Assembly (NCBI RefSeq): GCF_003334355.1
Contig: NZ_QOWP01000015.1
DNA: 64,000 bases
Origin: Escherichia coli
Lineage (GTDB): Bacteria > Pseudomonadota > Gammaproteobacteria > Enterobacterales > Enterobacteriaceae
Strand: one strand, 5' to 3'
The translations under genes were made by a program, and so were the position numbers. Numbering within the stretch: position 1 is the first letter of the stretch; every line of letters starts with the position of its first letter. Shown piece by piece: positions 26,595 through 30,795 of this stretch. The notes beneath the pieces are model-generated. The model worked only from the letters and a program-made list of their open reading frames with translations. It was not told the origin of the DNA and did not search any database.

Positions 26595-26628
26595 GTCGGA
26601 TGCGGCGTAAACGCCTTATCCGACTTAC
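26595..26628. repeat. REP element between convergent rhtB and rhtC
   Basis: ggatgcggcgtaaacgccttatccg REP core. Confidence 0.7.
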
Positions 26629-27331: not shown

Positions 27332-29161
27332 CTACTCTTCGTCGTCGCCGTCAACATGCGCGCGGATAAGCGCCATAAACGGTTTACCAAAGCGTTCCAG
27401 CTTGCGCATCCCAACGCCGTTAACGCTGAGCATTTCGCTGGCGGTGATCGGCATCTGTTCAGCCATCTCAATCAAGGTTGCGTCGTTAAACACCACGTAC
27501 GGCGGGACATTGCTTTCATCGGCAATCGATTTACGCAGTTTGCGTAATTTGGCGAACAGTTTGCGATCATAGTTGCCGCCGAACGATTTCTGCATCGCTT
27601 TCGGTTTGAGCGCCACGATACGCGGCACGGCAAGTTGCAAAGAGGATTCGCCGCGCAGCACCGGGCGCGCGGCCTCTGTCAGTTGTAGGGCAGAATGCTG
27701 GGCAATATTTTGCGTCACCAGGCCGAGGTGAATCAGCTGGCGGATCACGCTCACCCAATGTTCATGGCTTTTATCACGGCCCATGCCATAGACTTTCAGT
27801 TTGTCATGACCATAGTCGCGGATACGCTGGTTATTAGCACCACGAATCACTTCCACCACATAACCCATCCCAAACCGCTGATTCACACGACCAATGGTGG
27901 AAAGGGCAATCTGAGCATCGGTTGAACCGTCGTACTGTTTCGGCGGATCGAGGCAGATATCGCAGTTCCCGCACGGCTCCTGACGCCCTTCGCCAAAATA
28001 GTTCAGCAATACCAGACGACGGCAAGTTTGCGCTTCGGCAAACGCGCCCATCGCATTGAGTTTGTGGCGCTCGATATCCTGCAACTGCCCCTGCGGCTTC
28101 TCTTCCAGACAACGGCGCAGCCACGCCATATCAGCCGGATCGTAAAACAGCATCGCTTCCGCAGGCAGGCCATCACGCCCGGCGCGACCGGTTTCCTGAT
28201 AATAGGATTCGATATTGCGCGGAATATCAAAGTGGACCACGAAGCGAACGTTTGGTTTATTGATGCCCATGCCGAACGCCACCGTCGCCACCACAATTTG
28301 CAGGTCATCGCGCTGGAATTTCTCCTGCACGTCGGCGCGGACATTATTTTCCAGCCCGGCATGATAGGCCGCCGCGCTAATACCCTTGCTTTGCAGGCGC
28401 GCAGCGGTGTCTTCTACTTTCGCCCGGCTGTTGCAGTAGATAATGCCGGGCTTACCGCGCTGTTCCTGCACGTAGCTCATCAACTGATCGAGCGGTTTGA
28501 ATTTCTCCATCAGCATGTAGCGAATATTCGGACGGTCAAAACTGCTGATTTGAATCAGCGGATCGTTCAGCCCCAGCAGGCGCACGATATCCTGGCGCGT
28601 GGTGTCGTCGGCTGTGGCGGTCAGCGCCATAAACGGCAGCGTCGGGAACCGCTGGCGCAACTGACCGAGCGCGGCATATTCCGGGCGGAAATCGTGGCCC
28701 CATTGGGAGATACAGTGCGCTTCATCAACGGCTAATAACACCGGATTCCAGTGCGCCAGATGCTCAAGAAAGTTATCCAGCATCAGGCGTTCCGGCGCGA
28801 TATAAAGCAGGCGGATTTGCCCGGTGCGACAGCCTGTCATCACTTCAAGTTGCTGCTCGCGGGTTTGCGTCGAGTTAAGGCACGCCGCCGCCACGCCGTT
28901 GGCTTGCAGTTGATCCACCTGATCTTTCATCAACGAAATCAGCGGTGAAACAACCACGGTAAGGCCGTTTAGCAATAAGGCAGGAATTTGATAGCAAAGG
29001 GATTTTCCGCCACCGGTGGGCATGACGACCAGGCAATCGCGACCGGAAAGCACAGTGTCGATAATTTCTTCCTGGCCGGGGCGAAACTGTTGGTAGCCAA
29101 AGGTTTCTTGTAAAACCTGTTTAGCTCCGGACTCCAGATTCAACACTTCCGCCTGCGCCAC
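27332..29161 (-). CDS. recQ: ATP-dependent DNA helicase RecQ
   Basis: DExH helicase motifs, RQC and HRDC regions; start set at GTG giving [15 protein letters not shown] (609 aa); track ORF begins 2 codons upstream at another GTG. Confidence 0.95.
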
Positions 29162-29180
29162 ATTCACCCCGATTGCCTGA

Positions 29181-29210
29181 AATAAAAACAGGCGCTATTT
29201 TCAGCGCCTG
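29181..29210 (-). terminator. Intrinsic terminator downstream of pldA, just upstream of recQ
   Basis: On the minus strand caggcgct-gaaaat-agcgcctg hairpin followed by a T-rich run (tttttattt). Confidence 0.55.
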
Positions 29211-29293
29211 CGCGAGAAACTGCAATGCTTTTAGTCTCTGAGAGGGTAATCCTGGATGCTGGATTCCAGATTTGCCAACCACTCAACCGTTCA

Positions 29294-30163
29294 TCAAAAC
29301 AAATCGTTTAGCATAACCCCCACACCGACACGGGTCTGGTTGAAGTTATAGTCGATGAGCGATTCGCCATAGCCGCTGTAAACCTGAGTATAAAGGCGCA
29401 CATGTTTGGTGATCGGGTAACTTAAGCCTAACTCCGCGCCGCCGTAGCCGGTGTTCCAGTTATACTGTCCTTTCGCACTGAGCACCGCATCACCGAGGTG
29501 ATAGCCGATTTTAAGCTGGTAGTAACCCATATATTTGGTGATATCCGGGTTATCGTCAGTATTACCCACCACATACCACGGCTTCACTTCTACCAGCCAG
29601 TTACCGTTTTCTGCCATCAGGCGAGTATAAAGGCGGTTCCAGCTGCGGGAGGTCGGGTCTGAACGCCCGTTAGAGTCGTGGTTATACCCCATCTCCACAT
29701 CGCGCAGCGTCCAACCTGCAAAACGGTAATCGGTGGCAAAACCGAGGAACAATTGCGGTTCGTAGTTGGTTTCACGAAACGGTGAAGACTCTTCGCTATT
29801 GGACAGTTGCCACCAGGATTTTTGCGTATAAGACGCACCCAACACCGAGTTCGGGCCTAAAATCCCACGCCACAGTGGAAATGCCAGGCTCAACTGAAAC
29901 TTTACTTCATCCTTACGCGCATTTTCCGCCCAGTCGTAACTGGCAATCGCTTCTTTGTTCAGATCGCTGGTTTGGGTGTAGATGAGGTAGTTGGTGTCAT
30001 AAGGATAGAGCGTGAACGGATTGTCATGCTCCTGCAGCATATTGGCGATAATACTGCCACGCACCGCTGGCGCGTCATGCACCTCTTTCACCGTTGCCTC
30101 TTGTGCATATACTGCCATAGGCAACATAAACACCGGCAACAACCAGCCCTGCAGAGTCCGCAT
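29294..30163 (-). CDS. pldA: Outer membrane phospholipase A
   Basis: 289-aa ORF with signal peptide, recognised as PldA (OMPLA). Confidence 0.95.
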   Translation of the reverse strand: MRTLQGWLLPVFMLPMAVYAQEATVKEVHDAPAVRGSIIANMLQEHDNPFTLYPYDTNYLIYTQTSDLNKEAIASYDWAENARKDEVKFQLSLAFPLWRGILGPNSVLGASYTQKSWWQLSNSEESSPFRETNYEPQLFLGFATDYRFAGWTLRDVEMGYNHDSNGRSDPTSRSWNRLYTRLMAENGNWLVEVKPWYVVGNTDDNPDITKYMGYYQLKIGYHLGDAVLSAKGQYNWNTGYGGAELGLSYPITKHVRLYTQVYSGYGESLIDYNFNQTRVGVGVMLNDLF

Positions 30164-30327
30164 CGGTCGTGTTCTCCGTAACGAATTATTGATAAGGTGA
30201 ATGTTTTTCTGCGGGCTATTTTACATACTTAACTCCATTGCCGTTAGTTATCCCTTCCTAAAGTAGAAACCAACAACAAAGAAGCATAAAATCAACATTT
30301 CATTAACCAATGAAGTGTAAGGATGAT

Positions 30328-30795
30328 ATGTCTGCCGTACTGACCGCTGAACAAGCCCTGAAATTAGTGGGTGAGATGTTTGTTTATCACATGCCATTTA
30401 ACCGCGCATTGGGGATGGAACTGGAGCGTTACGAAAAAGAGTTCGCACAGCTGGCCTTTAAAAATCAGCCGATGATGGTGGGTAACTGGGCGCAAAGCAT
30501 TTTGCACGGCGGGGTCATTGCGTCGGCGCTGGATGTCGCCGCAGGTCTGGTGTGCGTGGGAAGTACCTTAACCCGCCACGAAACCATCAGTGAAGATGAA
30601 CTACGCCAGCGGCTATCGCGGATGGGGACCATTGATCTTCGCGTTGATTATCTGCGCCCAGGCAGGGGCGAGCGTTTTACTGCTACCAGTAGCCTGTTGC
30701 GTGCAGGCAATAAAGTCGCCGTCGCCCGCGTTGAATTACACAATGAAGAACAGCTTTATATTGCCAGTGCCACCGCCACCTATATGGTAGGTTGA
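30328..30795 (+). CDS. yigI: Hotdog-fold thioesterase YigI
   Basis: Track ORF from 30310; 155-aa form begins [12 protein letters not shown] at ATG 30328 after AAGGA RBS. Confidence 0.88.

Follow-up and report, generated by a model that had tools for sequence, protein, structure and literature searches.

A weak sigma-70-like promoter predicted within the pldA terminator, and the GTG start codon of Escherichia coli recQ

The stretch of Escherichia coli DNA analysed here (64,000 nucleotides of contig NZ_QOWP01000015.1, assembly GCF_003334355.1; called the window, to whose positions all coordinates refer) contains the junction between pldA and recQ, the gene of the RecQ helicase. Both genes lie on the minus strand, and a hairpin followed by a U-run separates them. 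The probable arrangement, judging from the sequence and its conservation, is that pldA ends at an intrinsic terminator interleaved with a weak sigma-70 promoter for recQ, the -10-like hexamer of which coincides with the hairpin loop. The analysis also settles which of two neighbouring in-frame GTG codons is the recQ start: it is the second. A preliminary description of the same DNA had noticed the hairpin and the GTG; it had overlooked the promoter-like signal in the hairpin and an out-of-frame ATG that runs across the start codon. The elements of the junction are the following.

29294..30163, minus strand: coding sequence of pldA, outer-membrane phospholipase A (list of open reading frames, ORFs, and RefSeq annotation of identical or near-identical E. 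coli loci)
29296..29294, minus strand: stop codon TGA of pldA (sequence)
29220..29225, minus strand: -35-like hexamer TTGCAG (top site of the sigma-70 position weight matrix, PWM; TTG invariant in alignment A2, described below)
29188..29211, minus strand: terminator hairpin with a 10-bp stem, GCAGGCGCUG/UAGCGCCUGU, and a 4-nt loop, AAAA (terminator scan, fold)
29210..29189, minus strand: core palindrome CAGGCGCT-N6-AGCGCCTG (sequence)
29197..29202, minus strand: -10-like hexamer GAAAAT, the hairpin loop, with A at -11 and T at -7 (PWM scan; invariant in A2)
29189..29192, minus strand: predicted recQ transcription start, 6-8 nt past the -10 and inside the hairpin 3′ arm (from promoter geometry)
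29180..29188, minus strand: U-run TTTTTATTT (sequence, terminator scan), which would also be the 5′ end of the recQ leader
27332..29161, minus strand: coding sequence of recQ, 609 residues plus stop (ORF list, RefSeq)

Read along the recQ strand, the pldA TGA is followed by a spacer of ~65 nt, by TTGCAG (29225..29220) and TTTCTCGC, and then by the hairpin, GCAGGCGCTG-AAAA-TAGCGCCTGT (29211..29188), with UUUUUAUUU as its direct 3′ flank. Beyond the hairpin come TTTTATTT, CAGGCAATC, GGGGTGA, AT and the GTG at 29161..29159. A 601-nt query laid across this part of the E. coli chromosome matches 5426/5426 complete E. coli genomes, and the genes annotated beneath the matches are pldA and recQ.

By its sequence, the hairpin is a canonical, efficient-looking intrinsic terminator of pldA. 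Its stem has ten pairs, six of them G-C, and its loop four nucleotides (limits of the class: stem of at least 5 bp, loop of 3-8 nt). Folded alone it reaches -16.6 kcal/mol (z = -3.1; 2/200 shuffles fold as well), and it is the sole strong match of the terminator scan in 28700..30500. The U-run immediately 3′ of the stem is T at 8/9 positions. Since the hairpin and U-run follow the stop codon of a same-strand gene, 83 nt 3′ of it in E. coli, the sequence fits an intrinsic terminator. The preliminary description had placed a same-strand hairpin and U-run about 20-50 bp upstream of recQ, and this holds: on the minus strand, the GTG is preceded by the U-run at a distance of 18-26 nt and by the stem at 27-50 nt. 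The GC-rich 9-10 bp stem, the 4-nt loop and the 8/9 U 3′ of the stem are all shared with other E. coli intrinsic terminators; the hairpin differs from them in being unusually conserved, loop included, over ~17 genera, with no covariation.

A repeated element, such as a repetitive extragenic palindromic (REP) sequence, can be rejected as the identity of the hairpin. The hairpin 22-mer occurs once in the window (0 expected), and a 61-nt block that contains it is single-copy in 5426/5426 complete E. coli genomes and at least 99% identical in 5413 of them. For the "2 places per genome" returned by the distant-mode search, a self-match of the palindrome on the opposite strand may be the explanation. 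The Rfam scan of 28900..29600 gave a single spurious opposite-strand match, well below the gathering score, and hence no RNA family. The Term-seq supplement of Adams 2021 has no pldA or recQ entry.

The same hairpin contributes to a sigma-70-like site. Among all such sites on the recQ strand in 29700..29150, a stretch of 550 nt ahead of recQ, TTGCAG-17-GAAAAT scores highest (6.6 bits), and it resembles sigma-70 promoters in the TTG at -35, the 17-bp spacer, the A at -11 and the T at -7. The preliminary description had seen little room here for a promoter. This was right for the 27 nt that separate stem and GTG, but not for the junction as a whole, as the sigma-70-like site overlaps the hairpin.

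The case for a promoter comes from conservation. Alignment A2 covers the pldA-recQ junction in 19 sequences from ~17 Enterobacteriaceae genera. Its invariant parts are the TTG, an ungapped 17-nt interval, GAAAAT, both stem arms, GG(G/A)G ahead of recQ and the GTG start. Conservation is weak, at a mean pairwise identity of 0.2-0.5, 5′ of the TTG, in the nine 5′-most bases of the spacer and in the leader that runs from the U-run to the Shine-Dalgarno (SD) sequence. These stretches are no better conserved than neutral sites, since the benchmark, 47 four-fold sites of recQ, has an identity of 0.49, with 6% of the sites invariant. In 19/19 aligned sequences the highest-scoring sense-strand site is TTG-17-GAAAAT, at the homologous position. 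Metagenome loci extend the comparison to 63 distinct hairpin-core sequences, defined by GCGCTGAAAAT(A/G)GCGC: in 63/63, TTGCAG, TTGCAC or TTGAAG stands exactly 17 nt upstream of GAAAAT, and the distance from the -10 to the GTG varies between 30 and 74 nt. The intergenic region of rhtC and rhtB, used as a control in the same loci, displays no conservation and complete turnover.

The element also keeps to recQ rather than to pldA (L numbers are our labels for loci). It stays beside recQ where pldA is not the upstream neighbour: in Superficieibacter (L008), which has a thioredoxin-like gene there, in E. albertii (L005), which has an inserted gene, and in L009. Weakening of the terminator, by a degraded U-run in Ent_Ag1 (L012) or by one-sided stem breaks (L193 and L194), leaves the -35 and -10 in place; the U-run is kept in nearly all hairpin-bearing sequences. 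L139/L176, L163 and L210 carry recognisably the same element as E. coli. A promoter should keep its hexamers and their distance and let the spacer sequence vary; the junction shows this pattern, which is that of sigma-70 promoters, and from it we infer promoter activity. A more general rule, that the -10 lies in the loop of recQ-upstream hairpins of other lineages too, was dropped: L102 has ACGACA-17-TATACT (7.8 bits), its close relative L183 is without it, and the "VSTAAVIN" hairpins score negative.

If this reading is correct, transcription of pldA would end at the 10-bp GC-rich hairpin and its U-run, and recQ would be transcribed from a promoter consisting of the -35 TTGCAG, a 17-bp spacer that includes the hairpin 5′ arm, and the -10 GAAAAT of the loop. 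The recQ transcript would start at about 29192..29189, within the hairpin 3′ arm. This zone is 28-31 nt 5′ of the recQ GTG and is equivalent to 3977489..3977492 in NZ_CP009644.1. An RNA that begins there is without the 5′ arm and so could not form the terminator; it would consist of a U-rich leader of ~28 nt, a moderate SD sequence, GGGGUGA, and the GTG start. A single element would then both insulate recQ from pldA transcription and give recQ a low expression of its own, and the GUG codon would lower translation further. RecQ is scarce, as the preliminary description had expected from the layout: Kohl et al. 2022 (PMC9841429) give a PaxDb abundance of 0.594 parts per million.

Annotation or earlier publications already cover the gene, its GTG start and the terminator, and the feature is an ordinary one; the understanding of terminators, promoters and RecQ is left unchanged by these results. 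The cross-genus conservation of a predicted promoter woven into a terminator is a modest addition for a low-copy genome-maintenance helicase, the control of whose level is modestly documented. If the embedded promoter is real, the junction is a compact, strongly conserved element of ~50 bp that ends one gene and starts the next, and recQ expression behind an efficient-looking terminator is explained. For annotation, it would be a caution that a terminator directly upstream of a gene does not imply a promoterless gene.

The main alternative source of recQ mRNA is read-through: recQ would have no promoter of its own, its mRNA would come only from polymerases that pass the pldA terminator or from a promoter inside pldA, and the terminator would be a fixed valve that keeps RecQ low. 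The preliminary description had leaned this way in suggesting that recQ may depend on read-through from pldA, a dependence that is unsupported as stated and needless if the embedded promoter works. The two genes are same-strand neighbours in most Enterobacteriaceae, which speaks for read-through, and several Enterobacterales lineages have a pldA-recQ gap of only 25-35 nt, no hairpin and an operon-like look. They include Buttiauxella L088 (L088:1472-1500), L109, L114, L128, L134, L144, L190 and L214, among others, and the "VATSAVLNQ" group. Co-transcription is plausible in L088, the "VATSAVLNQ" group and L190/L214, and the short gap makes dependence on read-through conceivable. More broadly, since recQ stands behind a short gap or lacks the element in some lineages, co-transcription with pldA or other promoters can serve it. 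A promoter inside pldA would also fit the sigma-28 genomic-SELEX (systematic evolution of ligands by exponential enrichment) peak at K-12 coordinate 4003446, which falls at about 29600 of the window, ~440 nt upstream of recQ (Shimada et al. 2017, PMC5493296).

Read-through leaves unexplained why the TTG is fixed 17 nt from GAAAAT in every one of the 63 hairpin-core sequences while the flanks drift, why the element follows recQ after a change of upstream gene, and why the -35 and -10 persist in L012, L193 and L194, where the U-run or the stem is damaged. The hairpin and its 8/9 U also suggest efficient termination. Of the two sources of recQ mRNA, read-through is the less likely, and we regard it as unlikely. 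A precedent for control of this kind is the rpsU-dnaG-rpoD operon, in which the internal terminator T1 and poor translation signals keep primase (dnaG) low. Like dnaG, recQ is a low-abundance gene of DNA metabolism behind a same-strand terminator and has sub-optimal translation initiation; it differs in that a conserved promoter-like signal overlaps the terminator, so that read-through need not supply its mRNA.

Several observations weigh against the embedded promoter. The site fits 8/12 consensus positions, below the scan threshold of 9/12, and in this, as in its being embedded in a terminator hairpin, it departs from sigma-70 promoters at large. The window contains sites of this score at a density of 0.17 per 100 nt per strand, and at such a chance density the promoter match alone is not significant. 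Neither a mapped transcription start site of recQ nor a mapped 3′ end of pldA was found in the searchable transcript-mapping literature and its supplements, among them Adams 2021, Kim 2012, Conway 2014, Yan 2018, Ettwiller 2016 and Mendoza-Vargas 2009, of which the last alone has an entry for the junction. Mendoza-Vargas et al. 2009 (PMC2760140) report one RNA 5′ end upstream of the hairpin, with promoter predicted "No", and their Table S6 lists the hairpin as a recQ "transcriptional attenuator". The element is missing upstream of recQ in Buttiauxella, the "VATSAVLNQ" group, L190/L214 and L156. Finally, the invariance of the stem arms, with 0 compensatory changes in 19 sequences, exceeds what either a promoter or a terminator calls for; such excess hints at an additional constraint, for example a protein operator.

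Two further sigma-70-like sites are present at the junction. One is antisense, TTGCCT(29173..29178)-17-TATTTT(29196..29201) on the plus strand; it scores 9.57 bits, above the sense site, and would fire into the pldA 3′ end. Outside Escherichia and Kosakonia sequences its -35 is missing, and the site is therefore not conserved. The other, TTGGCA(29278..29273)-18-CAGGAT(29254..29249) on the minus strand (6.57 bits), lies upstream of the hairpin inside an Escherichia-specific gene relic, and the upstream 5′ end of Mendoza-Vargas 2009 could stem from it.

The listing as an attenuator corresponds to a model in which a promoter upstream of the hairpin, in the E. coli-specific spacer or the 3′ end of pldA, makes a transcript that mostly terminates before recQ, and in which regulation acts on termination. 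If recQ starts at 4003887 of U00096.2, as we assume, positions 29221..29170 of the window correspond to 4003827..4003878 of that sequence. This is the interval given for the Merino-Yanofsky "transcriptional attenuator" of recQ in Table S6 of Mendoza-Vargas 2009 (PMC2760140), and the upstream 5′ end in that study, a single 454 read, points the same way. TTGGCA-18-CAGGAT would be a candidate for the promoter, and Photorhabdus has CATAAT just 5′ of the equivalent hairpin. Against this, the read has no predicted promoter and could equally be a decay fragment of pldA mRNA, and TTGGCA-18-CAGGAT lies in DNA found only in Escherichia. The pldA stop and the hairpin are a mere 15-18 nt apart in most genera, too close for a promoter and an antiterminator, and the fold of the read-through RNA contains no structure that would compete with the hairpin. 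With an unconserved upstream sequence, an upstream site specific to Escherichia and no competing fold, recQ does not fall into the class of transcriptional attenuators, and the model appears quite improbable. A terminator-like hairpin is also found before a helicase gene in the uvrD leader. The likeness to that leader and to the Merino-Yanofsky attenuators is that recQ, a helicase gene, stands directly behind a terminator-like hairpin listed as an "attenuator" in RegulonDB-linked work; the difference from the latter is that it has no conserved upstream promoter or antiterminator.

The invariance of the stem bears on a further model, in which the main role of the palindrome CAGGCGCT-N6-AGCGCCTG, or of CTGTTTTTATTTCAG next to it, is that of a DNA operator for a protein (e.g. 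an SOS box proposed in 1986) and the RNA hairpin is secondary. Seven of the ten stem pairs are invariant across the 19 sequences, and since the stem hardly varies, covariation support for the hairpin is absent. Invariant arms without compensation, at a divergence where neutral sites are saturated, are typical of protein-binding palindromes, and this one is centred on the -10, a common repressor position. The divergent metagenome sequence L168 argues the other way, as it has two compensated stem pairs (GAGGCACC/GGTGCCTG) and so keeps the pairing and not the sequence; moreover, the hairpin is almost always followed by the U-run, which fits an RNA terminator, and the palindrome is not known to match any operator consensus. 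Nor does LexA fit the neighbouring sequence, for CTGTTTTTATTTCAG, the one LexA-like sequence present, is CTG-N9-CAG in E. coli, one base short of the N10 that LexA geometry needs. An operator as the main function of the palindrome is, we consider, highly improbable.

Irino, Nakayama and Nakayama reportedly observed SOS-dependent induction of a recQ-lacZ fusion in 1986 (Mol Gen Genet 205:298) and are said to have proposed a recQ promoter and an "SOS box". A LexA (SOS) box is rejected here: the spacing among the 63 hairpin-core sequences is N9 in 30, N10 in 3 and neither in 30, the sequence is unconserved, and the defining CTGT-N8-ACAG is absent from the E. coli junction. The Pluralibacter-type loci L087 and L145 have CTGTTTTTATTTACAG upstream of recQ, with a perfect CTGT-N8-ACAG core where E. 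coli is one base short, which speaks for a DNA-level operator.

The same invariance allows a combined idea: that the TTG, the 17 nt and the 22-bp palindrome with GAAAAT in its loop form one ancient "terminator-promoter" module, selected at the sequence level beyond the needs of either function. The excess constraint would come from a regulator that uses the palindrome, centred on the -10, as its operator, or from a coupling of termination to initiation. In the latter variant, a polymerase released at the hairpin would re-initiate at the overlapping promoter, and recQ output would track pldA transcription without read-through. We consider such a module distinctly unlikely.

A 9-nt direct repeat, GCGCAGGCG, links the hairpin to the beginning of recQ. 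One copy is in the hairpin 5′ arm (29205..29213) and the other in recQ codons 2-4 (29150..29158), both on the minus strand; CAGGCG is invariant in both, and no function is evident. Given this repeat, the beginning of the recQ coding region is a second possible pairing partner of the hairpin 3′ arm. That the 3′ arm sequesters the start region, or that an antiterminator forms, is nevertheless rejected: by the time the downstream copy is transcribed, termination has already been decided, and no robust structure emerges from the folds.

The start of recQ and its translation signals involve the following features.

29167..27332, minus strand: maximal ORF of recQ (ORF list)
29165..29167, minus strand: upstream in-frame GTG, not the start codon (unconserved)
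29161..29159, minus strand: recQ start codon GTG (RefSeq start, PDB 1OYW N-terminus, conservation)
29164..29170, minus strand: SD sequence GGGGUGA (GG(G/A)G invariant at the same distance in A2)
29140..29163, minus strand: out-of-frame ATG within ATGTG, which opens a 7-codon ORF, ATG TGG CGC AGG CGG AAG TGT TGA (sequence)

Only a GTG can be the recQ start. The first in-frame ATG is residue 49 of the maximal ORF and abuts the Walker A motif that immediately follows, so it cannot serve; the preliminary description had been correct both about the GTG and about the lack of an in-frame ATG near the N-terminus. An in-frame TAG is present in the hairpin loop, just upstream of two in-frame GTGs six bases apart, at 29167..29165 and 29161..29159. 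The RefSeq start assigned by PGAP (Prokaryotic Genome Annotation Pipeline) is the second GTG, which gives 609 residues, in 4/4 E. coli records inspected. The N-terminus of the crystallised E. coli RecQ core (PDB 1OYW), MAQAEV, agrees with it. The second GTG is invariant in A2, and a GTG occupies the start position in 112/119 distinct upstream regions, taken from genome and metagenome contigs that share a 10-residue protein motif. The first GTG is rejected as the start because it is not conserved, even within E. coli: its position reads GTT, GTC, GAT, GTA or GAG in 12/19 aligned sequences, and GTT in E. coli N96. In Vibrio, Shewanella, Haemophilus and Legionella, recQ starts with ATG, and the GTG start is thus a conserved trait of Enterobacterales recQ. 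A GTG start is not rare in itself, as GUG begins ~14% of E. coli genes, with initiation at 10-100% of the AUG level (Hecht et al., bioRxiv 063800).

The position of the SD sequence is consistent with the second GTG. The conserved GG(G/A)G lies 5 nt 5′ of it, and GGGGUGA is predicted to pair with 3′-CUCCACU-5′ of the 16S rRNA over 7 bp, including one G-U, at an aligned spacing of 13 to the second GTG, which favours that codon. Under a stricter definition recQ is scored "no SD" (Kohl et al. 2022, PMC9841429). The preliminary description had the ribosome-binding region overlap the terminator, which the positions do not bear out: GGGGUGA lies 9 nt past the U-run, and the U-run is the only part of the terminator that would fall inside a 30S footprint.

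The start codon is also part of AATGTGG (29164..29158), in which ATGTG (29163..29159) contains an ATG that overlaps the GTG. Starts inside ATGTG or GTGTG have been defined as ambiguous AUGUG sites, and recQ is one of the 18 atGTG genes in Table 2 of Kohl et al. 2022 (NAR, Nucleic Acids Research, 51:271, PMC9841429). The annotated recQ GTG is like these sites in lying inside ATGTG; it differs in that the overlapping out-of-frame ATG is not kept across genera. This ATG is absent in most other genera of alignment A2 and therefore looks incidental.

The spacer between pldA and the hairpin has a history of its own in Escherichia. In E. coli, 29231..29278 (minus strand) is the relic of the 3′ end of a gene. 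In E. albertii, an intact ORF of 160 residues is inserted between pldA and recQ (L005:1949-2431), and the E. coli spacer shows homology to the final ~48 nt of this ORF, its TAA stop included. The product matches the WapI-like immunity family of Pfam (PF24716, E = 7.5e-20) and has no NCBIfam match. Another insertion is found in an Enterobacter-like metagenome contig (L156:1063-2313), where 1.25 kb with two opposite-strand ORFs (122 and 200 residues) takes the place of the -35 and the hairpin; the breakpoint is the U-run, and a different hairpin then follows pldA. Further downstream in the window, a REP-like palindrome, GTCGGATAAGGCGTTTACGCCGCATCCGAC, is located directly after the rhtC stop, at ~26595..26624 on the minus strand, in a spacer that is wholly different in other genera.

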